A DNA stretch of 64,000 nt, from the NCBI RefSeq assembly GCF_004765795.1, contig NZ_SBIV01000007.1, forward strand, positions 62,001-126,000, given 5' to 3'. The position numbers and the translations under genes were made by a program. The number at the start of each line of letters is the position of its first letter. Position 1 is the first letter of the stretch. The notes beneath the pieces are model-generated. The model ran no database searches. It was not told where the DNA came from and saw nothing but the letters and a program-made list of their open reading frames with translations. Source of the DNA: Halorussus marinus. Lineage in GTDB: Archaea; Halobacteriota; Halobacteria; Halobacteriales; Haladaptataceae. Positions 23,693-46,070 of the stretch are shown in pieces.

Positions 23693-23834
23693 AGCTGTGT
23701 TCGAAAGTGTCCGTTAAGGGACTCCCGCCCCCTTCAAGGGGGAAATAAACCTCTCTGCCGCAGTAATGGCGGCTGTTCAAGCGGCTCTTTGACTCTCCAG
23801 AAAGCGTTTATCAGCCGCTTGAAAACAGGGAACT

Positions 23835-25337
23835 ATGCGCCGCCGCACTGTCCTCGCAAGTCTCACTGCCGGCATCGGATCACTTGCCGGGTGTAGTACA
23901 ACGCTCGGCGGGACAACGGAGACACCGACTACGACACCAACCGAACAGCCAACTGAATCACCGACACCGACCTCCAATGATCCCAGTGAAAACGAGGAAT
24001 GGGAGCTCGGGGCCGCGAGCATCATCGACCTGACGACAGCCAACCGTACCTATGCACTTGCGCCTCTCCGCTATCGCTCCGACGATGGCGCAAGCATCAG
24101 GATGCGGTTCTCGTCGACGGCGACATCGGAGGGACCTGCGACGGTCGAAGCAACGCTCACCAACGAGAACCCCTTCGAGAACACATTTCGGTTGGACTGG
24201 ACGCCCCCTTTCGGGCGACTCTTTAGCGATATCCCCCATCCGATGGGAGAACGGAGTGGCGACTTTACGTATCGTGTCGGGTTGATATTTGCTCCGACGG
24301 CGAACCACGATCTCGTCGAGGATCCGCCTGACATCCAGCGTGCCGACGATGGCTACTGGCGACTTGCCTCTGATACAACCCCGGAACTCCCCGAGCGAGT
24401 TCGCCTTTCGCCGGGTGAAACTATCCATGGAGAGTACGCTCTGGTCGGTCGCGCCGAAGGGGTGGGACGTGGACGGCCACCAGGCGTCTACGAGTTCTCC
24501 CGAGCGGGCGAGCGGCCGCTTCGAGTGGCTGTTTGGCCGACCGACTCGCCCGGCCCAGCCACCGACTCGCAGTTCGCAGGCATGTCGGTTCCTGCGCTTC
24601 CGGGTGACAGCGATACGGCATGGTTCCACAACGCTGACGCGAGTTCACCGACGTTCGTCCGCCCAAGCACCGAGCAGACGAGTTTACCAGCCCGTATCGA
24701 GTTCACGTTCATTAATCGGGCTCGGGAGGCGGTGGGGTGTGGCCACTGGAACGTCTACAAACTTCAGGGTGGAGAATGGTTCCACCTCGGTCCGTACGTT
24801 CAGGATGCTGTCTGCCATCGCCTCTCACCCGGACATGCAGAAACCTGGGCTCTGCGGGCTGCGACTTCCGAGATGGCTCCGTGTGAGGCGCAGAGCTATC
24901 CGTTCCTCGGCGGCGGACGTTACGCCGCCGTCGCGGGCTACGGCCACGCGACAGCCCAAAGTGGAGCCCTCGTCGAGATTGACGCGCCACCAGTGACTGT
25001 CGTCCCGACCGATGATGTCACGACCCAGCGTGACAGCGGAACAGTGACGGCGACCTCGGATCGCTGGCGAACGGCTCCCGACTCTGAGGGACGTTCACGC
25101 GTGTCCCTTGTGCTCGAACCGGTAGGCAATGCTAACCGACGGCTTATCGCCGAACAGGTGATGCGCCGCCGCTATCGCGGGTATCGGAATACCCTCGCGT
25201 TTGTTGCCTCGGACGTGGAGCGTGTCGTCCTTCGCACAGACGACCGAACGGCTGACTGGACCGCTGGTTACGACGATGGGACAGCCCAGTTCCGATACGA
25301 AGAGCAAGCGTACCGCATTACGAAGCGTACACCCTGA
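23835..25337 (+). CDS. Tat-exported lipoprotein of unknown function
   Basis: MRRRTVL twin-arginine signal, LAGC lipobox and a T/P-rich linker. Confidence 0.8.
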   Translation: MRRRTVLASLTAGIGSLAGCSTTLGGTTETPTTTPTEQPTESPTPTSNDPSENEEWELGAASIIDLTTANRTYALAPLRYRSDDGASIRMRFSSTATSEGPATVEATLTNENPFENTFRLDWTPPFGRLFSDIPHPMGERSGDFTYRVGLIFAPTANHDLVEDPPDIQRADDGYWRLASDTTPELPERVRLSPGETIHGEYALVGRAEGVGRGRPPGVYEFSRAGERPLRVAVWPTDSPGPATDSQFAGMSVPALPGDSDTAWFHNADASSPTFVRPSTEQTSLPARIEFTFINRAREAVGCGHWNVYKLQGGEWFHLGPYVQDAVCHRLSPGHAETWALRAATSEMAPCEAQSYPFLGGGRYAAVAGYGHATAQSGALVEIDAPPVTVVPTDDVTTQRDSGTVTATSDRWRTAPDSEGRSRVSLVLEPVGNANRRLIAEQVMRRRYRGYRNTLAFVASDVERVVLRTDDRTADWTAGYDDGTAQFRYEEQAYRITKRTP

Positions 25338-25433
25338 CTATTGTATCCGTTTCAGGGTTCGTATACCGGCTAGAATCAGCTCGATTTCGGGGTCAGAATC
25401 GGCGACACATTCTCGCGCCGGTTCAAATGCAAG

Positions 25434-25697
25434 TTATGGTGGGAGGTGACGGTCGTAGATATTCCGGCGATGCCCAACCGCCTCAACGATCAGGACATCC
25501 TCATCCCGGTCCCAGGTGATGATCGCACGATAGTCGCCAGCACGAAGCTTGTAGTATGGATACCCGGTGAGCTTTTCGAGACGATGAGAGGTCCAGTCCT
25601 TTGCTTCGTCGAGTTTCTTCACCAACCGCTCTTGGGCTTCCGATTCGAGCCCCTCCAGCAAATCGAGTGCTTTTGGCGTCCACTCGACCTCAGTCAT
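25434..25697 (-). CDS. relE: RelE/ParE-family toxin
   Basis: EVEWTPKA...YKLRAGDYRAI...VGHRRNIY. Confidence 0.9.
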   Translation of the reverse strand: MTEVEWTPKALDLLEGLESEAQERLVKKLDEAKDWTSHRLEKLTGYPYYKLRAGDYRAIITWDRDEDVLIVEAVGHRRNIYDRHLPP

Positions 25698-25968
25698 CGA
25701 TGCCCAGCCGGTCCTTCACGTCGTCCTGCGACACCGTCTCGCCCTGCTCCCGCTGTTTGCGGCTCTCGGCCAGATGATCCAGGGCTTCCTCGGACAGCTG
25801 CGTTGGCGGATTGACGGCGTCCCGAAGCGCGTCGCGGATGAACTCGGATTTGTTCGCGTAGCCACGCTCCTCCCAGACGTCGTCGACCTGTGCCAGCAGC
25901 GACTGTGGCACGCGGACGTTGATCTTCTCCATCTCACCGTCGCCGCCGGCATCGCTGTCAGTGCTCAT
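25690..25968 (-). CDS. Ribbon-helix-helix antitoxin
   Basis: KINVRVP...YANKSEFIRDALR. Overlaps the toxin start. Confidence 0.88.
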   Translation of the reverse strand: MSTDSDAGGDGEMEKINVRVPQSLLAQVDDVWEERGYANKSEFIRDALRDAVNPPTQLSEEALDHLAESRKQREQGETVSQDDVKDRLGIDD

Positions 25969-25987
25969 ATGCTGTGATACGCCTGTA

Positions 25988-26197
25988 TCACGTAAGTAGC
26001 TTCGGTTGGATACGCGAACTGTGGTTAACGAGGTCGAGACTGCGTGCGAGGGAGAGCCGCCGATGCTCCGAGAAGTTCAGGACGACGGCTTGGCCGTCGA
26101 CGCGGAAGCCGACGTATTCGACTGCGTCTCGGTGAGCCTGACCTGGCGATGCGACTGGAACCGATTCCGAACTGGCCATAGGTACATTCCCGTTCAT
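25988..26197 (-). pseudogene. Truncated DUF6166-like backbone gene
   Basis: EYVGFRVDG...RSLDLVNHS ends abruptly at the TA module. Preceded by a copy of the leader motif. Confidence 0.5.
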
Positions 26198-26399
26198 TCG
26201 TTGCTCGCGGGCGGTTCGGTGACCCCCGCACCCCTCTCGGGGGCAATAAACACCACCAGCCCAGAATTGTCCTTGAGTTACAACGGATCCGCTGATTTGC
26301 TCTACGAGGGTGGAGCTGCTCAGACCATTTCCTGTTGGAGTAATTCCTGTAAACACGGGAGTCCCGAACGTTAACTACCGGGGAAGCATAGGTCTATGT

Positions 26400-27077
26400 A
26401 TGACAATTACGACTGAGTTTTCCCTCAGTTCACCGTCTCTCCCGCTGGTCAGTATCACTGAGAGACTCCCACCGGACCAAATTGAGTGCGTCCATGGGCT
26501 CTGTTTCGAACAGGACGCCCGGATGTTCATCGTCAAAATCGATTCCGATGTCAACGTTTCAGAAGCCGACTTGGAATCGCTGGACGAAGTCCAAGAGGCG
26601 ACAACGATCGGCTACGCGGGCGAGCAAACCGTCCACAACCTTACGATAGACCTCGCCGACGCGATCTCGGAAGTATTCAGTGGTGGCAGTTCCGTAGCGG
26701 CCAAACTCGAGCCGACCGTCGTCACACCGGACGGATGGTACGAAAGGAAAGTGTACAAGGACCGTGATGCGTTCATGGAGTCCCGGATCCGCTGTGAGAA
26801 CTACGGGATCTCGCTCGACCTCATCTCGATGACCTCCACTTCCGCTGCATCGGACGATGCTATCCCGTTTGGGTTGACTGAACGGCAATACGAGGCGCTG
26901 ACACTCGCACTCTCTCGTGGCTACTACGAGAGCCCACGACAGACCTCGACTGAGGAGCTCGCTACGGAACTCGGCATCTCACAACCCTCGCTCTCGAGAC
27001 TCCTCAGGCGGGGTGAGCGTCAGCTACTCTCTTCGGCACTCCAAACACAGGAGCACTTAAACACGGTTTCCAATTAG
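26400..27077 (+). CDS. HTH_10 (Bat-type) transcriptional regulator
   Basis: LTERQYEAL..ALSRGYYESPR...LATELGIS. Confidence 0.88.
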   Translation: MTITTEFSLSSPSLPLVSITERLPPDQIECVHGLCFEQDARMFIVKIDSDVNVSEADLESLDEVQEATTIGYAGEQTVHNLTIDLADAISEVFSGGSSVAAKLEPTVVTPDGWYERKVYKDRDAFMESRIRCENYGISLDLISMTSTSAASDDAIPFGLTERQYEALTLALSRGYYESPRQTSTEELATELGISQPSLSRLLRRGERQLLSSALQTQEHLNTVSN

Positions 27078-27129: not shown

Positions 27130-27981
27130 ATGAAGACAGTTGAACTCAACAACGGTGTGGAGATGCCGATTCTCGGATTCGGCACGTATCAAATCGAGGA
27201 CCTCGACGAGTGCGAACGAAGTGTCTCGGAAGCACTCGATACGGGGTATCGACTCATTGATACCGCGGCGGCGTATGGGAACGAGAAGGCGGTTGGGCGG
27301 GCAATCGAGAAGAGCGACGTGCCGCGAGACGAGGTGTTCGTTACGTCAAAACTCTGGGTGCAGGACACCGGCTACGAGGCTACGTTGGACGCGTTCGAGC
27401 GATCGTTGGACCGACTGGGCCTCGACTACCTCGACCTGTTTCTGATTCATCAGCCCTACGGCGACGTCCACTGTTCGTGGCAGGCTATGGAAGACCTCTA
27501 CGAGGACGGCAAAATCAGGGCCATTGGGGTCAGCAACTTCCACCCCGACCGGGTGATGGACCTCATGGTCCACAACGACGTCGTCCCGGCAGTGAATCAG
27601 ATCGAGACGCATCCCTTCTACCAGCGAACCGAGGATGCAGCATTCCTCGAGGAACAGGACATCCAACACGAGTCGTGGGGGCCGTTCGCCGAAGGCCAGA
27701 ACAACATCTTCGAGCACGACGTGTTGACCACGATCGGAGGCCGCCACGGCAAATCCGCTGCACAGGTAGTGCTTCGATGGCTCATCCAGCGCGAAATCGT
27801 CGCCATTCCGAAATCGGTTCACGCCGACCGGATCGCCGAGAACTTCGAGGTCTTCGACTTTGAACTCACCGACGAGGAGATGGAGACGGTCGCCGAACTA
27901 AACGAGGGTGAAAGCCAGTTCTTCGACCACCGAGACCCGGGAATGGTGAAGTGGCTGGGGGAAGCTGAGCGCGAGACCTAA
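27130..27981 (+). CDS. Aldo/keto reductase (2,5-DKG-reductase-like)
   Basis: [24 protein letters not shown] and IPKS. Confidence 0.93.
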
Positions 27982-28118
27982 ATCTCGATTACAGAGCGCT
28001 CCCTTCGGCCAGCACTCAATGTGACTGCGGTACGCATCGCTTACGGATACTTAAACGCGGTATCTCGTTAGCATCACGCCCAAGCGATTCACGTCCTTTG
28101 TTCAAACCGAGCACGACG

Positions 28119-29132
28119 ATGGAATACACGACTCTTGCTTCGACCGGAATGGAGGTCAGCCGCATCTGTCTCGGCGGGATGAGTTTCGGCGTGAGCGACT
28201 TCCACGACTGGACGCTCGACGAGGAGGGCTCGCGCGAAATTATCGAACGCGCGATTGACCTCGGTATCAACTTCTTCGACACGGCCAACGCGTACTCAAA
28301 TGGAGAGTCCGAGGAGATCATTGGGAATGTTCTCGGAGAGTACGACCGCGACGAACACGTCGTCGCCACGAAATGCTACTTCCCCACGAACCTCTTCTCC
28401 GATGCAGACGAACCGCACCCGAACGCGTCGGGACTCTCCCGGAAGACTGTCGAGCAAGAACTGGAGAATTCGCTAGACCGACTGGGGATGGATACCATCG
28501 ACCTCTACCAGATCCACCGGTGGGACTACGAGACACCCATCGAGCAAACGCTGCGTACCCTTGATGACGCAGTTCGACGCGGGAAGGTTCGATACATCGG
28601 CGCGTCGTCGATGTGGACTCACCAGTTCGCCGAGGCACTGTACACCAGCGAGCACCTAGATCTTGAACAGTTCATGACGATGCAGGACCACTACAACCTC
28701 GTCTACCGCGAAGGCGAGCGGGAGATGTTCCCCTTCTGCGAGAAAGAAGACATCGGCGTCATCCCGTGGAGTCCGCTCGCACAAGGATACCTCACCCGCC
28801 CCCACGAAGAGATGACGGCGACGACCCGCGGCGAAGAGCTCACCGAGACGCACGAGGAATACCGGATGGGCGGCGGACCGGCCGTCAACGAGCGCGTCGA
28901 GGAACTCGCTGCGGAGAAGGGGGTGACGATGGCACAGCTCTCGCTGGCGTGGTTACTCTACCAGGACGTCGTTGATGCACCGATCGTCGGCACCACGAGC
29001 GTCGAACATCTCGAACAAGCCGTCGACGCACTCGATATCGACCTGACGGATTCAGAGCTAGAGTACTTGGAAGAACCGTACGAGCCCCTGCCGATTGCCG
29101 GCACTCCTGTCCCTGGGTCGGAAGCCAACTAG
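28119..29132 (+). CDS. Aldo/keto reductase (aryl-alcohol-dehydrogenase-like)
   Basis: GINFFDTANAY, IDLYQIHRWD and WSPLAQG. Confidence 0.93.
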   Translation: MEYTTLASTGMEVSRICLGGMSFGVSDFHDWTLDEEGSREIIERAIDLGINFFDTANAYSNGESEEIIGNVLGEYDRDEHVVATKCYFPTNLFSDADEPHPNASGLSRKTVEQELENSLDRLGMDTIDLYQIHRWDYETPIEQTLRTLDDAVRRGKVRYIGASSMWTHQFAEALYTSEHLDLEQFMTMQDHYNLVYREGEREMFPFCEKEDIGVIPWSPLAQGYLTRPHEEMTATTRGEELTETHEEYRMGGGPAVNERVEELAAEKGVTMAQLSLAWLLYQDVVDAPIVGTTSVEHLEQAVDALDIDLTDSELEYLEEPYEPLPIAGTPVPGSEAN

Positions 29133-29165
29133 AGCTCGATGATCTGTGGCTTCAGTCACTCCATA

Positions 29166-29849
29166 ATGAGAGAGAATACCCTACGTACTTCGGACGATTC
29201 GGAGATCGATAGAACGAGTCGGCGTAAACTGCTAGGGGCAGCTGCAGTGGCAGGAGGTGGCTTCCTTGCGGGATGTATACACCAGAGCGGGTCCGAGACG
29301 GAAGAGCAGAATACCCCCTCCCAAACTGCGGATGAGGACAGCGTACTGATCGTGTTTTTCTCTCGTACGGAAAACACCCAAGCTGTCGCTGAAATCATTC
29401 AGCAAGAAGTGGGTGGAGAGCTGTTCGAAGTGTTGCCGGCAGACCCGTACCCCGTCGATTACGACACGCTCGTCTCACAGGTAGACCAAGAAAACGAAGA
29501 GGGCTACACCCCGCCTCTCCAATGTAACGTGGAGAATATCGAGGCGTATGACACCGTATTTTTCGGTGCCCCGACGTGGGATATGCAGTTGCCACCGCCG
29601 ATGAAGACCTTTCTGAGTGAACACGATTTGGGCGGGAAGACTGTGGTCCCGTTCAATACGAATGGTGGGTATGGCGTCGGGAGTAGCTTTCAAACGATAG
29701 AAGACCGCTGTCCAGATGCCGATGTACGGGAGGGCTTCTCCACGAGGGGTGGGTTGGAGAGAGATGGTGTGTACCTGGCAATCAAAGACGATCGGCGGGA
29801 GGAAGTCAGGGCGGAAGTGACTGAGTGGTTACAGAGGATTCAGATGTAA
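29166..29849 (+). CDS. Flavodoxin with Tat lipoprotein signal
   Basis: SRRKLL and LAGC in the signal; FMN loop FFSRTENT, PTW and PFNTNGG. Confidence 0.85.
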   Translation: MRENTLRTSDDSEIDRTSRRKLLGAAAVAGGGFLAGCIHQSGSETEEQNTPSQTADEDSVLIVFFSRTENTQAVAEIIQQEVGGELFEVLPADPYPVDYDTLVSQVDQENEEGYTPPLQCNVENIEAYDTVFFGAPTWDMQLPPPMKTFLSEHDLGGKTVVPFNTNGGYGVGSSFQTIEDRCPDADVREGFSTRGGLERDGVYLAIKDDRREEVRAEVTEWLQRIQM

Positions 29850-29899
29850 CCTCAGCCTTGCCGGTGCCGCGGCCGCACCCCTCTCATGGAATTGTTGCG

Positions 29900-31863: not shown

Positions 31864-32259
31864 CTAAGCCAGATGTGACACCTCATCTGGTTCCTCCACA
31901 TCGTCGAATTCGCCACGTTCGACCGGCTCCCAGTCCTCATTTGGCTTCGGACTCCACCAGTCGACCTCATAGTCGTCTGGGGCACCGAGGACCTTCACCC
32001 GTGCCGACCCATCGGGTAGGTCGCGACGGAGCTTCTCGTCGACGTGGAGGTTCCACGTCGAGTGGGTGTCGAAGCAGGCGAGGACGGCCTCCTCGTAGCC
32101 GCGTGTCTCTCGGGATTCTTGGAGTTCGACCTGCGTGTTGCAGTTCTTGCAGAACACACCCTCGAACAGAATGTGACTGAATACCTCGTGCCCGCAGACG
32201 GGACACCAGAGGAACTCGAACAGTGCTTCGCTGTGACGGTCGATAACTTCCAGACTCAT
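31864..32259 (-). CDS. Hypothetical Zn-ribbon protein
   Basis: CPVC...CKNC, acidic, with the leader motif upstream. Confidence 0.75.
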   Translation of the reverse strand: MSLEVIDRHSEALFEFLWCPVCGHEVFSHILFEGVFCKNCNTQVELQESRETRGYEEAVLACFDTHSTWNLHVDEKLRRDLPDGSARVKVLGAPDDYEVDWWSPKPNEDWEPVERGEFDDVEEPDEVSHLA

Positions 32260-32337
32260 CTGTGAACCTGGCCCGATTGAGACGGGCCACCCCTCTCGGC
32301 CCAAAAATAAACGCCCTCGCAGATGCACCCTTATCAA

Positions 32338-32703
32338 TCAGCGCTCGGCGCCGTACACGATTCTCGAGGATGCTTCGTACCCACAGCTCCGACACTCAAA
32401 CCAGCGCTGAACTTTCGCGCCGTCAGCCGTTTTCCCACCGATTGCCACGTCGCTACTCGGACACTCGGGACAGCTCAGCTCGGGCGCTGGCCGGTCACGG
32501 AGCTCGTCACGGAACGATTTCGCGTCTTTCGTCTCGTACCCCCGCGACCACACCGGGTAGCCGTCGACGAGGATTGCGCCACGCCACTTGTAGCGGTACG
32601 AGTCCGGGGCTCGGTGTAGGACAGCCCGAGCGCCGGTCTCCGTATTCCGGTATGCGAGTGTGGGCGTGCGGCTCTCGCGCTTCCAATTTGTGATCCGGGA
32701 CAT
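32338..32703 (-). CDS. Hypothetical protein with C-terminal Zn ribbon
   Basis: CPEC...CRSC. Starts 3 nt after the upstream stop. Confidence 0.75.
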   Translation of the reverse strand: MSRITNWKRESRTPTLAYRNTETGARAVLHRAPDSYRYKWRGAILVDGYPVWSRGYETKDAKSFRDELRDRPAPELSCPECPSSDVAIGGKTADGAKVQRWFECRSCGYEASSRIVYGAER

Positions 32704-36365: not shown

Positions 36366-37115
36366 TTAGCGCGATGCCAGCCGTTCTTCCGTGACCCGCT
36401 CGCCGGCAACATGTTGCTTCGCCAAATGTTCTTCCGCCCGACGGAGTCGGTAGGTGAGTGTTGACCGCGGCACGTCGAGATGCTCGGCGAGCTCGCCGAC
36501 GTCGACCTCGCGGGGCGACTCGTAGTAGCCGTGTTCGACCGCGGCCTGAAGCGCGGCCTCCTGGGCTGGCGGGAGGCCGCTCGGTGTCCCGTCGCGTCCC
36601 CCAGCTGCTGTCGTCGTGTCCGCTGTGCGAAGCATCTCCATCTGGGCGCACTCCCCGACGGCGACCTCAAGCGCGTCGAAGAACGCCGCCACGTCGCCAT
36701 CGCCGGAGTGGATGAGTCGCCACGTGTAGTGGCGACCCTCGTGACGAGTCTCGAACAGCACGCCGTCGCCGAGGTGGTCGCGAGCGATGTGGGGGACTGA
36801 GGCGCAGGTAGGGGTGCGCTCCCAATCTGAGTAGAGGATGAGCGCGTCGTCCGTGCGGTCGAGGACGCGGGTGGTCTGTGTGGCGTTGCAGTCCTCGGTG
36901 GCGAGACAGTCAGCGTAGTAGTCGCCGTTGAGAAAGGCGTCCTCGATGGCGTTGAGCGCCTCAGGCGTACCGGTGGCATGGTCGACCCGCCAGAGACGCT
37001 CGGCAGTGGCGTGCAGCGAGAGCGAGCGAACGCGAGCGTCGGGGTGGTCGGCGAGAGCGTCCGCCACCCTGTTGCAGCCGGGCTCGTATTCGAGAGCGAA
37101 GACGAGTTCGCGCAT
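36366..37115 (-). CDS. HTH_10 regulator, Cys/His-containing (probable regulator of the ATPase)
   Basis: AAVEHGYYESPRE...LAEHLDVPRST. Directly upstream of cadA. Confidence 0.85.
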   Translation of the reverse strand: MRELVFALEYEPGCNRVADALADHPDARVRSLSLHATAERLWRVDHATGTPEALNAIEDAFLNGDYYADCLATEDCNATQTTRVLDRTDDALILYSDWERTPTCASVPHIARDHLGDGVLFETRHEGRHYTWRLIHSGDGDVAAFFDALEVAVGECAQMEMLRTADTTTAAGGRDGTPSGLPPAQEAALQAAVEHGYYESPREVDVGELAEHLDVPRSTLTYRLRRAEEHLAKQHVAGERVTEERLASR

Positions 37116-37176
37116 ACCCCGTCTAAGGTCTGCTACGACATAACCCATGGCCTGCAGCGTTGTCGACCAGTAGACC

Positions 37177-37461
37177 TCAGATTACGTCGTCAGGGTCGTG
37201 AACTTCCTGCATTCGCTGTGCTTCGGCCGCGTATTGCTCTTGGAGGTCGGGGTCATCGACCATGCCAAGATTGCCGGGTTCAGCATCGACTGCTGCTGTC
37301 GTGTCTCGGACGTCGGTGAAGGACGTGAGTGCGCGTTCCTTCCGATAGTACTGTTCTCCATCGGGCGTCGCGTAGGTGAGGATGATCAGGTTCTGTTCGT
37401 CATCGGAGTACGTTCGTTCGACAAGCCAGACACGAAGACCGTCTTCAGATTGATTTGACAT
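37177..37461 (-). CDS. Hypothetical protein
   Basis: 94 aa acidic ORF (VWLVERTY...YATPDGE). Confidence 0.7.
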   Translation of the reverse strand: MSNQSEDGLRVWLVERTYSDDEQNLIILTYATPDGEQYYRKERALTSFTDVRDTTAAVDAEPGNLGMVDDPDLQEQYAAEAQRMQEVHDPDDVI

Positions 37462-37498
37462 ACTTGTGTGTTCCCCGGTATCCACTAAGGGATTGGTG

Positions 37499-38161
37499 TT
37501 ACGGCTTGCCGAGACTCGCTGTCTCGAAGGGTGATTCTTCGGTCGGAATGAGCAGCTCCTGTCGGTCTCCGACTCGCTCAGCGAGCTTCCGTTTCAGGTA
37601 CTGTCTCGCCGTCGACGGCGTGAAGACGCCCTTGTCGAGCATATCGCCGACGACGTCTTTGAGGGCCGCGAACTGGCCCTGCAGGTGGCCGTCGCCGACC
37701 GGCTCGCCGTCGTACCAACGCACCGTCGCAAGCGCGCCGTTCCCGACTGTTTCTCCCTGTTCGACCGTCTCCGAGTCGTACTGGAGGCCGAACCACAGCG
37801 TCCGATAGGCGGCCACCTCGAACGTCGTCGACACCACGAAGAACGCCTCGTGGTGGAGGTAGTCGAGGTGGTCAGCGACGATCTCCTCAAGGGTGAGCCC
37901 GGTGGCGCGGGGCTTCAGCTCGACGACCGTCGACGGTCGATCCTCGTCAGCGAGGTAGCCGTCGATCGCATCTGCCTCAAGGCCATCGGCCAGTTCAGCC
38001 AGCAGCTGTTTCGCCCACTTGGAGTCGGTGTCGTCGCCACCGAACGGCGACTCAGCCGAAATTCGGTGCTTGAGCTTGAGATTCGCTGCACCCCAATGAG
38101 AGTAGTGGAGCGTGTACTGTCCGTCAGTTCGTTCGTACGCAACGAGTGCGCGGTGGCCCAT
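37499..38161 (-). CDS. DUF6735-like hypothetical protein
   Basis: MGHRALVAYER...LHYSHWG start with a GAGGTGA RBS. Confidence 0.75.
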   Translation of the reverse strand: MGHRALVAYERTDGQYTLHYSHWGAANLKLKHRISAESPFGGDDTDSKWAKQLLAELADGLEADAIDGYLADEDRPSTVVELKPRATGLTLEEIVADHLDYLHHEAFFVVSTTFEVAAYRTLWFGLQYDSETVEQGETVGNGALATVRWYDGEPVGDGHLQGQFAALKDVVGDMLDKGVFTPSTARQYLKRKLAERVGDRQELLIPTEESPFETASLGKP

Positions 38162-38229
38162 TGAACAATCACCTCGCAGGACGACCCACGACTGGATCGC
38201 CCCGCACCCCTCCCGGGGGACGAACAACG

Positions 38230-38610
38230 CTACTCGTCGATCAGGTCGGGGGAACTGAGGTCCGCGTACAGCACCTCACCGTCGCGGACGACGTACCGTT
38301 TCGCCAGCACGGGAAATCGGCACTTGGTAAATCCGGCTGTCTGGATGTCGAATTCTTCGTCCGGTTCGAGATACTCCGCGAGCGACCGGAGGAACTCGTG
38401 GGTGACGATGCCACCGTCGTAATCAGGAAGACCGTTCTCACGAGCCTCGTACACTTCGAAGCTGTCGTAGCCCCAGATGATCAGTTCGCCGTCGTCATCC
38501 ACCTCCCAGTTGAGCGTCCCGAAGCAGTGGTTCTCACAGAGTTCGCGGACTTCCTGTGGATCCGATACGAGCGCGCCGGTCGATGTCGTTGCGGCTTGGA
38601 GTGTTGCCAT
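38230..38610 (-). CDS. Hypothetical acidic protein
   Basis: 126 aa, leader motif upstream. Confidence 0.75.
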   Translation of the reverse strand: MATLQAATTSTGALVSDPQEVRELCENHCFGTLNWEVDDDGELIIWGYDSFEVYEARENGLPDYDGGIVTHEFLRSLAEYLEPDEEFDIQTAGFTKCRFPVLAKRYVVRDGEVLYADLSSPDLIDE

Positions 38611-38718
38611 GGGTTGTTCTCGGGAGCGGTCTCGCGCCCCCGCACCCCTTCAGGGGGGGCGAACAACCACTCACGCTGTGACGGCCACAGGACGCTGCGT
38701 TGCCGACGCGTCGTGCTG

Positions 38719-38907
38719 TCAGGATTCTTCGTTGGCGTCACCGTCCGCCGTCGTATCCGGTCGGGTGAGGAGCTCTACCTGCTCTAGAAGCGTCGTTGCT
38801 GTGCTGATCCGCTCTCGATCGACGGACTCCAATTGCTCGCCGTCGATACTGGTGAGATTGTTGAGCGCGCGGTGCAGCCGGTAGCCGGGTGTGTCGCGTG
38901 GGTCCAT
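38719..38907 (-). CDS. Hypothetical small protein
   Basis: 62 aa, helical and acidic, leader motif immediately upstream. Confidence 0.65.
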   Translation of the reverse strand: MDPRDTPGYRLHRALNNLTSIDGEQLESVDRERISTATTLLEQVELLTRPDTTADGDANEES

Positions 38908-39051
38908 ATGTGCGCCTCCGCCAATTCTCGGCGCCGAAAAACACCGGCGGGTAGTCAGCAGGTGTGGTATCGTCGGGTGGTCGCGAGCTGGCTTCTGTTA
39001 ACCAACAACTTCGAGCCGACACCAGAATTGTTGGTTAATTTGACGTCATCT

Positions 39052-39936
39052 TTACTGACCGGCTTCGGGTTCGGGTCCATAGCGGGGCGTGCCGCACCGC
39101 TGACAGCCCCACATTGGCTGCCCGGTCCACTCGTCATCGGGGATAGCCTCGAATTCGCGGAATCGATGCTTAGTCTCCCGATCACACTCTCGACACTCGA
39201 GGTGGGTTCTGTTTGGACGCTCGCGTCGTGGCTGTTCGGTATCGGTCTTGTCAACGGATTCCTGGAGCGCAATCGCTGGCACCAGCCAGAGGTCGTCTGC
39301 GTCCTCACGTAGGCTTGCAAGACGATCTTCGGAGCGAACCCCACCCCCGGTTTCCTCGTAGAGAAACGTCGCGTGCTCACCGTCGTGACGGGGCTGCGTC
39401 GTCTCTGTCCACGGTGTCCGGTTGCGAGCGGACGCGAGCAGCTGATTACCACATTCAGACGTGACCCGTGTCGCCGAGGGGAGCGAGGGCCACTGATCAA
39501 CAAGCTGTGGGGCCGGTTCCTCGTCGAGATCGTAGATTAGCTTGCAGTCATCGACTACTGGGTCATCATCTGCCTTCGCGAGGAGGGTCGCCGCAGCAGA
39601 TCCCTTCCCGACGGCGGCGTAGAACGTTGACGCCTCGACGAGCAGCTGGATGACGTGGAGGAGAGTCCGTTCGGCATTCGCTGTGTCCTGGCCGTCGGCT
39701 CCTTCGAGATGGTTCGTGAGACAGAATCGGCACTTCGACTGGCCAGCGGGGATCGACGCTCCACAGGAAGCGCACTCGGTCTCATCTGCTGTCGGGCCAT
39801 CTGGATAGTCCGTGTCGACGCCACCAGAGCGTTGCCGCCGGGGCTCGCCACTACTACTGGCGAGTTGATCGTCGGGAACGTGGGTCGCTTCACCGAGCGG
39901 TCGGAGGGCTTCGTAGTCGGCGTACTGGTCGGTCAT
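39052..39936 (-). CDS. Hypothetical protein with two Zn-ribbon motifs
   Basis: CASC..CRFC and CREC..CQRC. Confidence 0.75.
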   Translation of the reverse strand: MTDQYADYEALRPLGEATHVPDDQLASSSGEPRRQRSGGVDTDYPDGPTADETECASCGASIPAGQSKCRFCLTNHLEGADGQDTANAERTLLHVIQLLVEASTFYAAVGKGSAAATLLAKADDDPVVDDCKLIYDLDEEPAPQLVDQWPSLPSATRVTSECGNQLLASARNRTPWTETTQPRHDGEHATFLYEETGGGVRSEDRLASLREDADDLWLVPAIALQESVDKTDTEQPRRERPNRTHLECRECDRETKHRFREFEAIPDDEWTGQPMWGCQRCGTPRYGPEPEAGQ

Positions 39937-40036
39937 AGAGTATTCTGGCCGTATCATGCTTCGTCTTCGGGTTTAAACAATAGCTCTCACATCAATCATC
40001 CTACAGGTACACAATCGAAAATCAGCAGTGTGGGCC

Positions 40037-40963
40037 TTAGACAGCCAGTTCGTCCAGCGCGTCGCGGTGGGTCCGCACGGTGACCACCGAGACGTTCGCA
40101 ACGTCAGCGACGTCCGATTGGGTGAGCCACCGTCCGTCTTCGCGTCCGGCCTTGTACAGACAGGCTGCGGCGAATCCGGATGGCCGAACCCCCGTGGTTG
40201 TTCCGGTCGATTCGGATGCTTCCGCCAACTGCCGAGCCCGCTGCCGGATCTGATCGGAGACGTCGAGCTCCGATGCCAACCGTGGAATGAACGCACTGGG
40301 CGTCACGGGTTGGGCCGGCAGGCCAAGTTCCGTGTTCAGCGTCGTGTATGCGTTCGTCACCCGCGATTGCTCGACGCGCGCCGACTCGGTGATGTCGTCG
40401 AGCGTTCGCGGCCGCCCGTTACACCGACACGCGCCGTAGACACTCGCGGCGGCCATCGCCTCGATCGACCGGCCCTGCAGGAGGTCCTCGTTCTGAGCGC
40501 TGCGGAAGAGCTGGCAGGCCTGGTCACGGATCGTCTCGGATAGTTCGAGCGCACTACTGATCCGGCGGACTTCACTAAGCCCGTGTGCGAGGTTGCGTTC
40601 GGCTTTCGACTGAAACCGCCCACGCGTCTGTTCACGGCGCATCCGAGCGAGCCGCCGTCGCTTCTGTCCTGAGAGTTCGTTCCCGTTCGCATCGGTCCCG
40701 TGGCCGATCTCCGTCGACAACCCACGATCGTGCCGCGCCGCTGTCAACGGAGCACCCGTGCGCTCCCGTTCGTCTTCGTCGAACCCTCGCCACTCTGGCC
40801 CGTGGTCGATCCGCTGCTCGTCGACGACGAGTCCACAGTCCTCGCAGACGGTTTCAACCGCGTTGGTTGTAACTTGCCCGTTACACTCGGGACACTGCGT
40901 AGCATTCGAGTCGGTCTGGACGTCTTCGTCGAACGTCGTTTCGTAGATCTCTCTGGTTGCCAT
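40037..40963 (-). CDS. tfb: Transcription initiation factor IIB
   Basis: CPEC..CEDCG Zn ribbon, IDHGPEWR, HDRGLST, GRSIE and two cyclin repeats. Confidence 0.95.
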   Translation of the reverse strand: MATREIYETTFDEDVQTDSNATQCPECNGQVTTNAVETVCEDCGLVVDEQRIDHGPEWRGFDEDERERTGAPLTAARHDRGLSTEIGHGTDANGNELSGQKRRRLARMRREQTRGRFQSKAERNLAHGLSEVRRISSALELSETIRDQACQLFRSAQNEDLLQGRSIEAMAAASVYGACRCNGRPRTLDDITESARVEQSRVTNAYTTLNTELGLPAQPVTPSAFIPRLASELDVSDQIRQRARQLAEASESTGTTTGVRPSGFAAACLYKAGREDGRWLTQSDVADVANVSVVTVRTHRDALDELAV

Positions 40964-41165
40964 GGATACTCACGAGGGGACTCACGCGGATCGCGTCTCT
41001 CGGAGTGCCCCTCACCCATCAGGGGCACATACACACCACACGGAACAGCGCTGACACTGGAGGGCTGCGGTGGCGAAAGCCCGGCCGCGAAACGGCGCGT
41101 GAGCGCCGTGAGCAGCCCGGACCGTGGAGGTGGTGGGAGGTGGCGGTGACCGCGTACACACCAGC

Positions 41166-41187: not shown

Positions 41188-42084
41188 CTATTCCCACCAC
41201 CGACCGCGCTCAGGGAACATAATGGTGCTCCACCCAGTGACAGCCAGTGAGACGCGCCCCTCGTACCAGTTCCGGGCTACCTTGTGAATACGCACCTGCT
41301 CGCCCTCTTCAATCCACGGCGCATCTGATTTCTCCCAGATCGTCACCTTCGTTTTTCCACTGTCGTCTGCGATCAGCCCGACTTGAGCGATGGCCGGCGA
41401 GTCCGCATCCCAGAGTACTTCGACTCGACCCTCGATGCTCACCTCTTTGCGATTGACGTCCTCGAGCTTCCCAATGGGGATCACCGTCCCAGGCGCCGTC
41501 TGCAACTCCTCGAACACCCCGACGACTGCACTCGTTAGGTCTTTCCCACCGACGACGGCTTCACCCAACCGCCGGCCAATCGCTGCTCGCGACCAGCCAT
41601 CCAGTTTTTCCGCCAACCGCATCGACTGCTTGTTCACCGCCGCCAACTGCTCCTGCGTGAGCTCTGCACGAGGATCGTCTCGCTCCGGGTCAGCCATCGG
41701 ATTCACGCTCGCTGCCCGCTTCTGGAACTTCACACGCCGCTCAGCGCTTCGCTTCGCTGCGATGTCTCGCGTCCGCTTCGCACGCCCCTCCTGCTGACTG
41801 AGTTCTGCCTGGGCACTGATGTGTTCCAACTCGGCCTCTCGTGCCTTGATGCGCTCTTCCTGTTCGAGGGTCTTCCCGAACAGGTGATCCGGGCCTTCCT
41901 CGACGCGCGCGTCTGGGTGGTTGGAATCGACTTTGGCCTGGACTTCCATGTCGACCGTCGCCCGGAACTCCGGGGTCTCGTCGACGACTTCGAAGCCATC
42001 CTCGTCGACCTCGCCTTCATCGTGTTTCTCGAAAGCCTGTTCATCGACCGAAACTACATCCGTGGTGACGTTGTTACTAGACAT
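41188..42084 (-). CDS. OB-fold ssDNA-binding (RPA/SSB-like) protein
   Basis: C-terminal VSIEGRV...QVGLIADDSG...VTIW...EGEQVRI OB fold, with a coiled-coil N-terminal half. Confidence 0.8.
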   Translation of the reverse strand: MSSNNVTTDVVSVDEQAFEKHDEGEVDEDGFEVVDETPEFRATVDMEVQAKVDSNHPDARVEEGPDHLFGKTLEQEERIKAREAELEHISAQAELSQQEGRAKRTRDIAAKRSAERRVKFQKRAASVNPMADPERDDPRAELTQEQLAAVNKQSMRLAEKLDGWSRAAIGRRLGEAVVGGKDLTSAVVGVFEELQTAPGTVIPIGKLEDVNRKEVSIEGRVEVLWDADSPAIAQVGLIADDSGKTKVTIWEKSDAPWIEEGEQVRIHKVARNWYEGRVSLAVTGWSTIMFPERGRWWE

Positions 42085-44556: not shown

Positions 44557-44721
44557 CGGCGAGGGATACCGGAATCTATGGCGTAATGCCAAGCGGTGCG
44601 GCTTATTGGATACTTTCCCTATCCATGGATAGGGAGACTCCCCATTAGTCGCGGTCAAGCGCGACGTCGACTTCGTCAACGAGGTCCTCCATGGAAACGG
44701 TGTAAGCGTCGGCAACATGTC

Positions 44722-45045
44722 TCACTCAACGAGATGCTCATCGAGGTCGTGCGTCCAGTACGTCGCGGGCCCGCCAGGACTACATCGCGCACACAGCTGC
44801 AGCGGCCCCTCGAGATGGCCGAGTTCCACACGGAAGCGCGTGAGCGCCGCGAGAGCGTCGACGACGAGCCCACAGCCATCGCAGGCGTCGCGATCGCGCT
44901 CGTCGGGATCCGGCTCCATCTGGATCGCGCAGTCGACGCAGATAGGGTGGGTGACCCGCTCATCTTCCCCCCAGGTGTGGGCCTCGCCAGTCTCGGTGCT
45001 GGGCGGAGCGTCGCAGAACGCACACCCTGTAAGCGTCTGCTGCAT
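44722..45045 (-). CDS. Hypothetical double zinc-finger protein
   Basis: Four CxxC pairs. TAATG overlap with the upstream gene. Confidence 0.75.
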   Translation of the reverse strand: MQQTLTGCAFCDAPPSTETGEAHTWGEDERVTHPICVDCAIQMEPDPDERDRDACDGCGLVVDALAALTRFRVELGHLEGPLQLCARCSPGGPATYWTHDLDEHLVE

Positions 45046-45335
45046 TACTCCGCCTCCGCGTCGGCGTCGCGGCCGGCCGTCCAGCCACGGTGGAAGACGG
45101 CCAATTGCGTCGTCGAGTCGAAGGTAGTAACACTCGGCTCGTGAACGAGAACGCGATCCTCGGGAACGGGTGTGACGACGTCCGCGTCGATGAGGTCGTC
45201 GACTAGGCTGCGGGCCGTTGCGTCGTCGACGTCCGCGGTCGCGACGCTCGCGGCGTCACGGTCCTGTGCGAGGAGTTCGGTTTCGAGCTGTTCGTGGTCG
45301 GCACTCGTGTCGTCGTGAGGATCGGGACCAGCCAT
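45045..45335 (-). CDS. Hypothetical acidic protein
   Basis: 96 aa, leader motif upstream. Confidence 0.7.
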   Translation of the reverse strand: MAGPDPHDDTSADHEQLETELLAQDRDAASVATADVDDATARSLVDDLIDADVVTPVPEDRVLVHEPSVTTFDSTTQLAVFHRGWTAGRDADAEAE

Positions 45336-45555
45336 GGTGAATCACGCCGCGCACGCTCTCGCGCGCTGCACGCCTCCCGGCGCCGATAAACAGCCCAGTC
45401 GGAGGGCGTCAGTCCGACCCTGGGTCGCGATACTCGAAAACGGCAACGTCGCGGAGGGATAGGGCGGTGGGCGGGGGTTGAGGGCATGAATTCTGGCAAC
45501 GTCGTTAACCAACACTTCGACAGAACTGGTCCCGAGTGTTGGTTAAGAGTGTGGC

Positions 45556-45996
45556 CTATGGAGTCCGGAGTTCCTGAACCGGCTTCACGTTGAACGTGTC
45601 CGGCTCGCTGGCTGCTGCTTCTCGTGTGCGTTCCGCTTGTGAGGCTGCCGACCGGGTGAGCTGGGTGACGAGTTCGTCGCGAACGATCTCCCGAGGAACG
45701 GTTGTCTCGTGCCAGCCCAGCCGGGCGTCGAAGTGCCGCTTTTGGAACTGCTCGCTGACGTCGTCGACGGCGACGTACTGCGTGCGGTTTGTCCCCCGGA
45801 CCTGGTGGGTGACGACGACTGCCCCCACGTGCTCGTGCGTCAGCTCGATTAGGGCACACTCCACGAGCGCGACGAGCGACGCGTGATCGCGGTCGTTCGG
45901 GATCGCCACCTCGAGGTCTGCCCACGGAGCCTCCCCGTCGGAGTTGGTTGCTGCTTGCTGTACCGTCTGCGTTTGGGTCGTACGTTCCGAAGCCAT
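45556..45996 (-). CDS. Hypothetical protein
   Basis: 146 aa, leader motif upstream. Confidence 0.7.
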   Translation of the reverse strand: MASERTTQTQTVQQAATNSDGEAPWADLEVAIPNDRDHASLVALVECALIELTHEHVGAVVVTHQVRGTNRTQYVAVDDVSEQFQKRHFDARLGWHETTVPREIVRDELVTQLTRSAASQAERTREAAASEPDTFNVKPVQELRTP

Positions 45997-46070
45997 CGTC
46001 TATCGGGGGCACGTGATGTACCCCGCCGCCCCCTGGCGGGGGTGACAGACGTGCCGCTGCGGTCGCAACG

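Follow-up and report, generated by a model that had tools for sequence, protein, structure and literature searches.

A TATA-like tract and a conserved-loop GC hairpin ahead of backbone genes in a haloarchaeal megaplasmid family, a possible core-promoter class

The haloarchaeal core promoter consists of a BRE, a TATA box at about -28 and WW at -10/-11, and the BRE upstream of TATA is read by TFB. Archaeal transcription tends to end at T5-7 runs. Protein-controlled RNA switches with competing hairpins include the RAT/terminator systems of BglG/SacY.

The early promoters of phage N4 carry a GC-rich heptamer centred at -11 and flanked by inverted repeats. According to excerpts of PMC4496689, their loop and closing bases are conserved, and non-conserved stem bases matter for pairing alone; plain duplex DNA gives no promoter activity, and an SSB assists activation. 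The stoperators (Cluster A) and start-associated sequences (Cluster K) of mycobacteriophages are described, in excerpts of PMC9283540 and PMC3203893, as many short asymmetric copies placed in one orientation to transcription in short intergenic gaps by gene starts, and bound by one genome-silencing repressor.

A signal of about 32 bases, in which a T-tract resembling a TATA box leads into a GC hairpin whose loop is conserved, was found ahead of plasmid backbone genes in the window, which is the whole analyzed stretch of 64,000 nucleotides from Halorussus marinus. A first-pass annotation had listed 12 full copies and a cut copy, and all were recovered at their positions on the minus strand, each ahead of a minus-strand gene. 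The tract variants of the full copies were GTTTATT, GTTTTTC, GTTGTTC, GTGTATG, GTCTGTC, and GTCTTTC. Behind the tract, GC inverted repeats enclose GA(G/T/A)GGGTG or a degenerate version of it, and ATG stands 4-55 nt downstream. The degenerate copies at 23724, 38912, 45362, and 46021 have the cores GGGGG, TTGGCG, GGCGTG, and GGGGGC, respectively. The stems named in the annotation do vary and do pair and, as it had noted, no copy was found ahead of any cargo gene (P-type ATPase, HTH_10 regulator, aldo/keto reductases). The features are as follows.

26 to 54, minus strand: copy 12, tract GTCTTTC (48-54), hairpin 26-45 with stem GCCCTC/GAGGGC and loop AAGGGGTG, 29.8 bits; ATG 7 nt past the hairpin, gene continuing beyond the window start.
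23724 to 23750, minus strand: copy 1, tract GTTTATT, degenerate core GAAGGGGGC, 27.8 bits; in a divergent intergenic region, target HTH_23 gene 23183-23692.
26223 to 26251, minus strand: copy 2, tract GTTTATT, stem CCCCCG/CGGGGG, loop AGAGGGGTG, 39.4 bits; in a divergent intergenic region, targets 61-aa ORF 25988-26173 and an RHH/ParE pair.
29872 to 29885, minus strand: cut copy, core GAGAGGGGTG and partial 3' arm, without tract or 5' arm; at the border of the aldo/keto reductase cargo block.
32284 to 32312, minus strand: copy 3, tract GTTTATT, stem GGGCC/GGCCC, loop GAGAGGGGT, third arm GGGCC 9 nt beyond; target DUF7567 gene 31864-32262.
33254 to 33285, minus strand: copy 4, tract GTTTTTC, stem GCGCCGGC/GCCGGCGC, loop GATGGGT, third arm GCGTCGGC ahead of the start codon, 36.3 bits; targets ORF 32707-33228 and DUF7568 gene 32338-32703.
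33740 to 33772, minus strand: copy 5, tract GTTTTTC, stem GGCGGG/CCCGCC, loop AATGGGTGAGC, 28.3 bits; target 138-aa ORF 33307-33723.
38200 to 38228, minus strand: copy 6, tract GTTGTTC, stem CCCCG/CGGGG, loop GGAGGGGTG; target DUF6735 gene 37499-38161, its leader with an alternative hairpin H2 and Shine-Dalgarno-like GAGGTGAT.
38635 to 38667, minus strand: copy 7, tract GTTGTTC, stem CGCCCCC/GGGGGCG, 13-nt loop, third arm CGCTCCC, 34.6 bits; target 126-aa ORF 38230-38610.
38912 to 38942, minus strand: copy 8, tract GTTTTTC, stem GCGCC/GGCGC, degenerate core TTGGCG, 31.1 bits, E 0.0064; target 62-aa ORF 38719-38907, ATG 4 nt past the hairpin.
41005 to 41034, minus strand: copy 9, tract GTGTATG, stem GTGCCCCT/AGGGGCAC, loop GATGGGTG; target plasmid TFB gene.
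45362 to 45391, minus strand: copy 10, degenerate core GGCGTG, 30.2 bits; target 96-aa ORF 45045-45335.
46021 to 46050, minus strand: copy 11, tract GTCTGTC, stem CCCCGCC/GGCGGGG, degenerate core GGGGGC, third arm CCCCCG, 27.9 bits; target 146-aa ORF 45556-45996.
40037 to 40963, minus strand: plasmid-encoded TFB, TFIIB repeats and Zn ribbon, own gene preceded by the motif.
41188 to 42084, minus strand: RPA-like single-strand-binding protein, OB fold at residues 206-288.

Likely counterparts of copy 10 elsewhere, with similar tract and stem, are well-formed (GCGCCG/CGGCGC, core AAGGGTGA).

The window was searched with a hairpin descriptor, i.e., GGGTG inside a 6-13 nt loop on a mismatch-free stem of 5 bp or more. 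Twelve hairpins were detected on the minus strand and two on the plus strand; eight of the former are claimed copies (26, 26223, 32284, 33254, 33740, 38200, 38635, and 41005), and the remaining four have no tract. Tract and hairpin together occurred nine times on the 217-kb contig of the window and four times on a related 39-kb contig, with five weak-looking matches in the remaining ~3.5 Mb. The 217-kb contig holds two motif clusters in opposite orientations, each cluster on one strand. The composite motif is not due to chance, whereas GAKGGGTG alone was mildly enriched (10 vs 4.35 ± 2.21; 10 was reached by 2 of 100 shuffles).

A covariance model built from the window copies, which it matches by construction, scored the 12 copies at 24.5-39.4 bits; the next best score in the window was 11.6 bits, and no plus-strand match appeared there. 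A second model, built from 150 copies of other loci, recovered five of the 12 at E<0.01, and the copies missed have stems unlike the two commonest stem types. The cut copy reached 9.9 bits with the second model (E 0.76), plausible but not significant.

Across 85 related loci, 462 model matches were counted. Of the 151 Halobacteria genomes sampled, 77 had hits. The motif-bearing megaplasmid family occurs in roughly one haloarchaeal genome in two, and Haloferax volcanii pHV4 carries seven copies. Rfam gave no match for the motif even at E≤1, and no description was found in the literature searched; the motif class appears to be undescribed.

The tract follows the consensus G-T-y-T-w-T-y, and GGGTG lies at a fixed 17-21 nt from it, flanked by inverted repeats of 5-9 bp with at least 113 different stem sequences. 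For 280 of 353 unique gene-strand hairpins with a GGGTG loop, a tract lies no more than 45 nt away. The spacing was 17-21 nt in 269 of these, independent of stem length (5-9 bp), and a longer stem goes with a shorter spacer between tract and hairpin. A co-oriented ORF starts 24-170 nt after 413 of 430 copies, in most cases 48-69 nt from the tract. Upstream, the stop codon lies at a variable distance (1-195 nt), with many copies beginning 1-25 nt past it. Motif type goes with the downstream gene and not with the upstream gene, and 114 distinct upstream contexts were counted. For 1180 locus pairs with a common downstream gene, the homology break fell at position 0 in 355, at -5 to -1 in 258, and at +9 to +12 in 307. 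Because homology ends at the motif edge and co-oriented ORFs start so regularly after it, the motif is tied to the downstream gene. Stem changes within families comprised 31-33 'other', 10-11 A.C, 18 G.T, and 7 compensatory events; with so many disruptive changes, selection on pairing is moderate. The motif is an element-wide, strand-specific gene-start signal with genuine stem variation around a conserved loop. The element-wide control system proposed in the annotation is partly supported; a core promoter with a TATA-like tract was not among its options.

Since haloarchaeal TATA boxes match the tract, and the hairpin's 3' foot is as far from it as a start is from its TATA box, a core promoter of a plasmid-borne regulon is the leading reading, adopted here tentatively. 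The tract would be the TATA box, and transcription would start about 31 nt past the tract G, at the 3' foot or 1-3 nt beyond. In H. volcanii promoters of Babski 2016, the T-run of boxes such as GATTTTTCAC and GATTTATCAC occupies -30 to -26. When these boxes were aligned with GTTTTTC/GTTTATC, +1 was calculated at motif position 31, the foot of 8-bp stems, and this is the predicted start. With such a start, the conserved GA(G/T)GGGTG would be centred near -11, at the upstream edge of the melting region, and the inverted repeat, free in sequence with complementarity kept, would let the unwound stretch fold on itself. The ATGs of copies 8 and 12, 4 and 7 nt past the hairpin, fit an mRNA that begins at the hairpin foot and has little or no leader, the copy 8 mRNA then being leaderless. 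In the divergent intergenic regions of copies 1 and 2, the tract is the clearest TATA-like element. No fixed-distance AT-rich box was found upstream in the 114 distinct contexts or in 89 'start-like' contexts; there was only a weak bump at -32 to -25, and the tract is the only fixed AT element of the start-like contexts.

The N4 promoters are counted as precedent for the core-promoter reading because of the matching geometry and the variable but paired stems, as far as the N4 excerpts go. The motif loop is likewise centred near -11 relative to the predicted start, its stems differ but pair, and the element encodes an SSB. However, N4 has three promoters, used by a single-subunit phage RNAP, whose loops measure 3 nt and stems 5-7 bp and which lack a TATA box, whereas the motif has a dozen copies per element, loops of 7-13 nt, and a TATA-like tract 20 nt upstream. 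Its enzyme would be the host multisubunit RNAP with TBP and TFB, and hairpin extrusion is putative. The T-rich box is of the same sequence type as in canonical haloarchaeal promoters, equally far from the predicted start and directly upstream of genes, including the two near-leaderless cases. Unlike these promoters, the motif has no A-rich BRE-like element ahead of the tract, GGGTG in a GC palindrome takes the place of the -10/-11 WW, and no start was seen at seven copies in H. volcanii dRNA-seq. With the mycobacteriophage sites, as the excerpts describe them, the motif shares many one-orientation copies by gene starts on a mobile element. Those sites are bacterial 13-14 bp duplexes without hairpin or TATA box, whereas the motif core sits in a covarying hairpin and its reader protein is at candidate level.

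With plasmid-type TFB called at a best E≤1e-100, the motif was found in 58 of 63 sampled genomes with this TFB vs 19 of 88 without. The arrangement resembles alternative sigma factor regulons, with TFB paralogues as sigma-like selectors: the element encodes a general factor that is found together with a private promoter motif, and the factor's own gene carries that motif, although mere linkage on one backbone could explain the co-occurrence. The conserved element lies downstream of TATA, unlike in known TFB reading, and TFB is a candidate reader.

In the H. volcanii dRNA-seq table, no forward TSS was mapped within 100 nt downstream of the seven pHV4 copies, and the motif cores are missing from its 70-nt upstream column, whereas genes neighbouring the copies do have TSSs. 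A transcript end of HVO_A0024 was located at 25725, 35 nt ahead of a motif copy. The class is therefore silent on pHV4, and the lack of any sense TSS over ~6.6 kb holding five copies points to transcriptional rather than post-transcriptional silence.

The motif could instead be transcribed, in polycistronic RNA or from promoters further upstream, and act as an RNA leader hairpin or switch; this is possible but the less probable view. Hairpin H1, with loop GAKGGGUG and a 5' U-tract, would be bound by an element-encoded protein and compete with H2, in which the 3' arm pairs with a third arm at the start codon, and the choice would set translation, stability or processing per cistron. The third arm, complementary to the 3' arm and 3-16 nt ahead of the start codon, beats shuffles in 7 of 21 gene families, and counts against a promoter because RNA beginning after the 3' arm cannot form this pairing. 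In DUF6735 leaders, H2 is 97% paired vs 34-54% when slid, shows one-sided GC<->GU variation at 4-5 positions, and its arm is kept in variants with unrelated loop sequence. The DUF7567 family has an H2 of 7 bp with GC/GU changes, and TFB leaders have an extra hairpin abutting H1, with some double changes. Sense-strand folding is slightly more stable than antisense (-13.2 vs -12.5 kcal/mol; 136 vs 51 of 252), and G.U pairs are commoner (179/2130 vs 94/1946). RNA-library contigs, in which DNA carry-over is possible, run across copies 9, 10, and 11, and one stops within the copy 6 tract; motifs 1-25 nt past a stop codon are expected inside operons. As in RAT/terminator switches, a conserved-loop hairpin shares an arm with an exclusive second hairpin, but no U-run follows the latter, two thirds of families have none, and the presence of the motif hairpin in RNA is putative. 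Against an RNA leader stand the tract-to-core distance, fixed in linear sequence whatever the stem length, the TATA resemblance of the tract, and T5-7 runs that would tend to end transcription right ahead of the hairpin. The start-like contexts also offer no consistent upstream promoter, the ~6.6 kb of pHV4 lack a sense TSS, and Rfam matches no family; the H1 changes, 18 G.T vs 10-11 A.C, are not decisive. The protein-bound 5'-UTR or RNA-processing site of the annotation stays a live rival through the alternative hairpins, ranked below the core promoter.

A single-stranded DNA site, extruded or exposed on the sense strand (lagging-strand template or transferred strand), is unlikely. It would be a priming site for an NrS-1-like PrimPol, the loop showing 5'-GTG-3', or a cassette-exchange recombination site. 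Backbone genes include those for a PrimPol carrying an NrS-1-type helix-bundle domain (E 5.5e-32), for a very large D5-like protein and a VirB4-like ATPase, and for the RPA-like SSB. HBD primases of pRN1 and NrS-1 recognize 5'-GTG-3' in ssDNA (excerpt of PMC8718748); GTG alone, however, is ubiquitous by chance. One strand per cluster and the opposite clusters of the contig would suit such a site, but replication polarity is inseparable from transcription because gene and motif strand are always equal. The 114 upstream contexts and the homology break at the motif edge lend indirect support to the cassette shuffling suggested earlier, but no HUH or tyrosine recombinase was found in Pfam/NCBIfam scans of window ORFs, and the tight start-codon link (413/430) and motif types moving with the downstream gene speak against such a site. 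The Frpo-like ssDNA promoter, also suggested, is not supported since the sole TATA-like element is outside the hairpin and would stay single-stranded. It is very improbable that the motif is a terminator or insulator, with the T-run ending upstream transcription and the hairpin merely stabilizing a 3' or 5' RNA end. Tracts like GTTTTTC are T5 runs and a hairpin-plus-T site overlaps the copy 4 tract, but the motif hairpin comes after the T-run, many tracts have no T-run (GTCTATT, GTGTATG, GTTGTTC), and the motif moves with the downstream, not the upstream, gene. The single mapped pHV4 3' end is outside the tract, and terminator-like sites in the region are no commoner than in shuffles (9 vs 9.8). 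Such a role could coexist with a promoter.

No start site was observed, the pHV4 data giving only absence, and the third arm, the RNA-library read-through, the missing BRE, the moderate selection on pairing, and the possible TFB linkage also count against a promoter. Nevertheless, a special class of promoter that is silent under normal conditions is the most likely identity of the motif. The hairpin stretch would be its specificity and control element, read by an element-encoded factor, with the plasmid TFB as first candidate and the RPA-like SSB, which may bind the extruded loop, and Zn-ribbon proteins as others. The start site is thus predicted, the reader a candidate, and the use of the hairpin in DNA putative. 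When the factor is absent or the site is occupied by a repressor, the GC-rich promoter would stay closed, which would account for the silence of the whole set in an established plasmid.

The first-pass annotation had described a signal, i.e., a T-tract followed by a GC hairpin (H1) with the loop GA(G/T)GGGTG, at 13 sites before backbone genes of the window. All 13 sites were as described. The 12 full copies (copies 1-12) lie on the minus strand, and an ATG follows each of them at 4-55 nt. In eight copies, a stem of 5-8 bp without mismatch closes a loop with exact GGGTG; four copies are degenerate, and one site (29872-29885) is a remnant. A covariance model (R1) was made from 21 copies of this genome. 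On the window it scored the 12 copies at 24.5-39.4 bits, a match that holds by construction; the next match reached 11.6 bits, and none was found on the plus strand. Support independent of R1 came from a tract-plus-hairpin descriptor. It found 9 sites on the window's own contig (C7) and 4 on C14, a related contig, whereas the remaining contigs, about 3.5 Mb, had 5 weak sites. The observation was further supported by other genomes, in which copies stand at the corresponding gene starts. The 150 best copies from other loci went into a second covariance model (R2), which was over-fitted to two stem types and recovered only 5 of the 12 window copies at E<0.01; it was discarded as a general model. 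The first-pass annotation knew of no description of the motif. Rfam gave no match at gathering score over the whole window and none at E<=1 over 32200-41100, and in the papers searched nothing relevant was found on the motif, on the DUF families, or on the pHV4 genes. The motif is thus a real and widespread one that the sources searched do not describe.

Contig C7 is 217 kb long with 57.6% GC, and was recognized as a megaplasmid because the large contigs of the genome have about 69% GC. A backbone on the minus strand lies at 30-56 kb of the window and includes the following genes.

40037-40963, minus strand, TFB gene
41188-42084, minus strand, RPA-like SSB
46071-47330, minus strand, NrS-1-type PrimPol
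within 30-56 kb, minus strand, DUF7567, DUF7568, and DUF6735 genes
within 30-56 kb, minus strand, D5-like protein of 1475 aa
within 30-56 kb, minus strand, VirB4-like ATPase

Cargo was found within the backbone, i.e., aldo/keto reductases (27130-29849) and a P-type ATPase with an HTH_10 regulator (33927-37148). The latter insert, a P-type heavy-metal ATPase with an HVO_2928_N/HTH_10 regulator, is placed between the DUF6735 gene and the next backbone cassette. It is missing from pHV4, a Haloferax volcanii plasmid, and a contig from an RNA library bridges it, linking 33794 with 37515. The 301-aa protein encoded at 39052-39957 (minus strand) matches NCBIfam NF051898 'biosurfactant protein 1' at equivalog level (E 3e-136). 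Its gene is conserved in the backbone yet has no motif, and ORF 32707-33228 is a partial paralogue of it. At 25434-26251 (minus strand), a well-formed motif copy stands on a 61-aa ORF, behind which an RHH/ParE toxin-antitoxin pair was found; this pair may be part of the motif regulon. A second, more distant TFB-like gene is located at 57269-58348 (plus strand). An AT-rich island was seen at 60001-62000 (GC 0.43 vs. about 0.60 in the surroundings). No Orc1/Cdc6 gene, which would have served to set the replication polarity of the copies, was found near this island. The same plasmid has a second, partial backbone copy in opposite orientation (C7:156930-164004, plus strand), and contig C14 (38.8 kb) has a third. 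One hairpin of these extra copies (GCGCCGGC/GATGGGT) is identical to window copy 4.

The DUF6735 protein showed 344 relatives at E<=1e-10, the best of which are 85-97% identical and come from many genera, and it is encoded at 148 genomic places. Eighty of these were fetched with 10-kb flanks, and the motif block precedes the DUF6735 gene in all 80, including those with unrelated upstream sequence. In 85 sources (1.61 Mb), R1 gave 462 matches at E<=0.01, and all of the best 300 lie on the gene strand. A two-box scan (tract, then GGGTG 18-22 nt on) gave 506 matches on the gene strand vs. 111 in block-shuffled sequence, both strands together. The other strand gave 33 matches, a number that includes the window's own copies, the window being scanned in native orientation. 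Of the related loci, numbered with L, L003 and L085-L088 were left out of the stem, gene-tie, and later locus analyses. R1 matches were found in 77 of 151 sampled Halobacteria genomes (35 of 57 genera), and 65 PLSDB plasmids have the DUF6735 region, including pHV4 (L089) at 92.9% identity. A weaker, often split DUF6735 paralogue (E 1e-14 to 1e-28) is placed on the chromosome, at C2:295585-296091 in this genome. It is widespread on many chromosomes of one family, and genomes with only this paralogue often lack the motif. A viral origin was considered and rejected; the pattern had 0 matches in viral contigs, and for DUF6735 there was no more than a partial match of 32%, to Haloarcula hispanica tailed virus 2.

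The tract has the logo G-T-y-T-w-T-y, i.e., G, T, and T are invariant at positions 0, 1, and 5, T is dominant at 2 and 3, and W stands at 4. Measured without presupposing its value, the distance from tract to GGGTG was 17-21 nt in 269 of the 280 unique hairpins with a tract at most 45 nt away (353 hairpins in total), and it was independent of stem length. A stem score of at least 5 was reached by 408 of 511 gene-strand instances (80%) vs. 2 of 25 on the other strand (8%). The 113 distinct stem pairs include CCCCG/CGGGG, GCGCCGGC/GCCGGCGC, TCGCCCCCG/CGGGGGCGA, CCCCTC/GAGGGG, GGGGT/GCCCC, GAGCCTC/GAGGCTC, and TCGTCCCGC/GCGGGACGA. In TFB leaders (27 of 30 unique leaders given), H1 was 93% paired, and three pairs had changed on both sides. 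Stem changes within families comprised 7 compensatory, 18 G.T, 10-11 A.C, and 31-33 other events. The stems named in the first-pass annotation vary in sequence and are able to pair; within families, selection on pairing is moderate. Internal mismatches of H1 were 4 G.T vs. 8 A.C, plus 20 C.C register artefacts. G.U vs. A.C asymmetry, tried as an RNA test for H1 on these mismatches (4 vs. 8) and on the polymorphisms (18 vs. 10-11), was not decisive.

Starts were taken from a crude ORF caller. Of the 430 copies whose stem score was 4.5 or more, 413 had a co-oriented ORF start 24-170 nt further on, in most cases 48-69 nt away from the tract G. The upstream stop lies 1 to 195 nt from the copy. A total of 381 leaders (244 unique) with a start codon 40-120 nt from the tract were assigned to 21 downstream-protein families, i.e., TFB, DUF6735, DUF7567, DUF6166, DUF6610, two TnpB-like proteins, an HNH+HTH protein, and an ArdC-N/IrrE-like protein, among others; Pfam gave no match for 10 of 20 family representatives. 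One gene family stands behind up to 22 unrelated upstream contexts, and 114 contexts were seen in all. In 1180 pairs of such loci, which are not independent and match in the tract by definition, homology broke at position 0 in 355, at -5 to -1 in 258, and at +9 to +12 in 307.

In related plasmids, TnpB-like genes with a motif leader (Cas12f1-like TNB domain, 420-602 aa) were located at L047:6502-8307, L035:8516-9775, and L020:6007-6291. The window's own TnpB gene (12344-13720) has no motif leader. Before DUF6610 genes, the motif is preceded at a distance of 16-60 nt by a separate inverted repeat of long range, TTAACCAAC ... GTTGGTTAA. This repeat is kept in five unrelated contexts (L052:19490-19548, L071, L082, L083, and L037) and resembles the NrS-1 primase site TTTGGTTA, or an operator.

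The motif could be a silent, factor-dependent class of core promoter with a hairpin at -11; this is the reading we favor, at a little under an even chance. By eye, the tract is like boxes such as GATTTTTCAC and GATTTATCAC of the H. volcanii TSS table. T-runs of the tract type lie at -30 to -26 in H. volcanii promoter rows, which predicts +1 at motif position 31, where long stems have their 3' foot. With this start, the octamer of the loop would fall at -14 to -7, i.e., the core at motif positions 17-24 would be centred near -11 with inverted repeats flanking it. In 89 start-like contexts, no other AT-rich element was found at a fixed upstream place. Upstream of the tract no purine/A-rich BRE was seen, only weak G/T preferences at -7 to -1. 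Copies 1 and 2 lie within divergent gaps. Crowding by divergent genes was not seen, as the nearest divergent ORF start is 62 nt upstream of the tract and always leaves room for another promoter. Under the predicted start, copies 8 and 12 would give near-leaderless mRNAs.

The motif tracks the plasmid-type TFB better than DUF6735. These counts include related, and hence non-independent, genomes, and linkage could also account for them. The motif was present in 58 of 63 genomes with this TFB and in 19 of 88 without it, and the TFB was present in 51 of 60 genomes with at least 3 motif matches. All 42 genomes with backbone-type DUF6735 have the motif, yet so do 34 of 104 with at most a weak DUF6735 match.

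Plasmid pHV4 has seven copies, with the tract G at 25760, 29196, ~29627, 30383, 30868, 45802, and 46851. The TFB gene of this plasmid has its CDS at 25828-26754. No forward TSS was found within 100 nt downstream of these copies (Babski 2016, supplement 2, parts 60 + 61); the forward TSSs around them are 25002, 25577, 25599, 26978, and next 32224 (Babski 2016). The motif genes are therefore silent there, and the missing sense TSS shows silence, not a start elsewhere. The silence fits a repressed or factor-dependent class. In the 70-nt upstream column of Babski 2016, five motif cores gave 0 matches, and the shortest string gave 1 unrelated chromosomal match. A 3' end is located at 25725, 19 nt past HVO_A0024 (Berkemer 2020). 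Strong antisense TSSs were seen on the reverse strand at 30319 and 25713 (coverage 312 and 18; Babski 2016), the sense strand being silent; the former is opposite the DUF6735 gene, and the latter falls in the gap that immediately precedes the motif copy of the TFB gene. The processing-site tables of PMC8303175 list nothing for pHV4, for NC_013966, or for the HVO_RS tags of motif genes, and the Laass 2019 supplement has none of six HVO_A tags. Raw-read RNA runs with the window stretch were not found. Four RNA libraries showed backbone relatives, with contigs across three copies; being contig-only, they give no starts, strand, or level.

Like an archaeal core promoter, the motif has a TATA element of the host's consensus type, but it has no BRE and, at the seven pHV4 copies, no mapped start. 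In phage N4 early promoters, as described in PMC4496689, a conserved element at -11 lies inside an inverted repeat of free sequence and is activated by SSB. With the predicted start, the motif would resemble these in having a conserved element near -11 between pairing repeats of free sequence. N4-type promoters also involve a dedicated polymerase and hairpin extrusion that depends on supercoiling and SSB; extrusion at the present motif is putative. It is rather unlikely, but conceivable, that an archaeal 'hairpin promoter' class exists in which the plasmid TFB, sigma-like and possibly with the RPA-like SSB, opens GC-locked promoters via an extruded GAKGGGTG loop. In such a class, the inverted repeat would be centred at -11, downstream of an ordinary TATA box, in a dozen or more promoters, and the TFB would recognise the loop extruded from it. 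If true, this class would be the multisubunit-RNAP counterpart of the N4 early promoters and an on/off switch of the megaplasmid backbone, perhaps at entry into a new host.

It is possible, though less likely, that the motif is instead an RNA leader switch. For DUF6735 leaders (24 sequences, picked for diversity from family 1 and 8 loci), the structure preferred by RNAalifold is a second hairpin (H2), i.e., the H1 3' arm with the segment just before the Shine-Dalgarno-like GAGGTGAT. This H2 is 97% paired vs. 34-54% when slid. Six of its pairs vary one-sidedly, with C and T alternating opposite G at four; as the 5' side does not vary, shuffling is no informative control for it. Compared with shuffles, 7 of 21 families had a significant three-arm layout; the same DUF6735 site accounts for two of the seven, and leaders with <12 nt downstream were skipped. 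The layout was found in 18 of 19 DUF7567 leaders, and in 28 of 41 leaders of family 0 an alternative long helix joins the tract and arm with the third arm and SD. An RNA starting at position 31 would be unable to form these structures, and the promoter reading leaves them unexplained. Sense-strand folding is only slightly favored; the lack of an Rfam family, both window-wide and over 32200-41100, speaks against a leader RNA. As a candidate binder, DUF6735 has an AlphaFold pLDDT of 82.1, and no PDB chain matched it at Foldseek E<=0.001.

A single-stranded DNA site is improbable. The loop shows 5'-GTG-3', which HBD primases read in a single-stranded template according to PMC8718748, and the backbone looks conjugative or replicative. 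The PrimPol-type GTG occurs in every well-formed loop and is a trinucleotide, and such a site would leave the tie to gene starts and the TATA-like tract unexplained. The motif is very improbably a terminator or insulator only, as the T-run comes before the hairpin, the other strand has the hairpin and then AATAAAC or GAAAAAC, and terminator-like sites numbered 9 vs. 9.8 in shuffles. What probability remains falls to other readings. The first-pass annotation had suggested a Frpo-type ssDNA promoter, but the only TATA-like element lies 0-4 nt outside the 5' arm, and the stems are 5-9 bp of GC with the boxes not within them. Its cassette-shuffling site has indirect support in the break of homology at the motif edge, and the motif does not match integron attC. 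Such sites are imperfect palindromes of 60-150 nt with R''-L''/L'-R' boxes; they stand 3' of the cassette, and an IntI integrase is found close by. The present unit measures about 32 nt and goes with the gene downstream of it, and Pfam/NCBIfam found no integrase in the ORFs scanned. A Frpo-like promoter, attC, and an intrinsic terminator are unsupported because each fails in a defining feature.

The genes with the motif form a coherent regulon, so far uncharacterised, whose plasmid backbone is found across genera with 85-97% protein identity, i.e., a megaplasmid backbone common to about half of haloarchaeal genomes. The regulon genes include TFB, DUF6735, DUF7567/7568, DUF6166, DUF6610, ArdC-like, and TnpB-like genes. 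Because pHV4 of the genetic model H. volcanii carries a silent set of seven copies, activation of the backbone is directly testable. If the promoter reading is true, a TFB paralogue would have a private promoter class, possibly with DNA-hairpin-dependent initiation by archaeal RNAP; if the RNA reading is true, the motif would be a plasmid-wide post-transcriptional switch in archaea. On either reading, the motif can help to annotate such elements and the gene starts on them.
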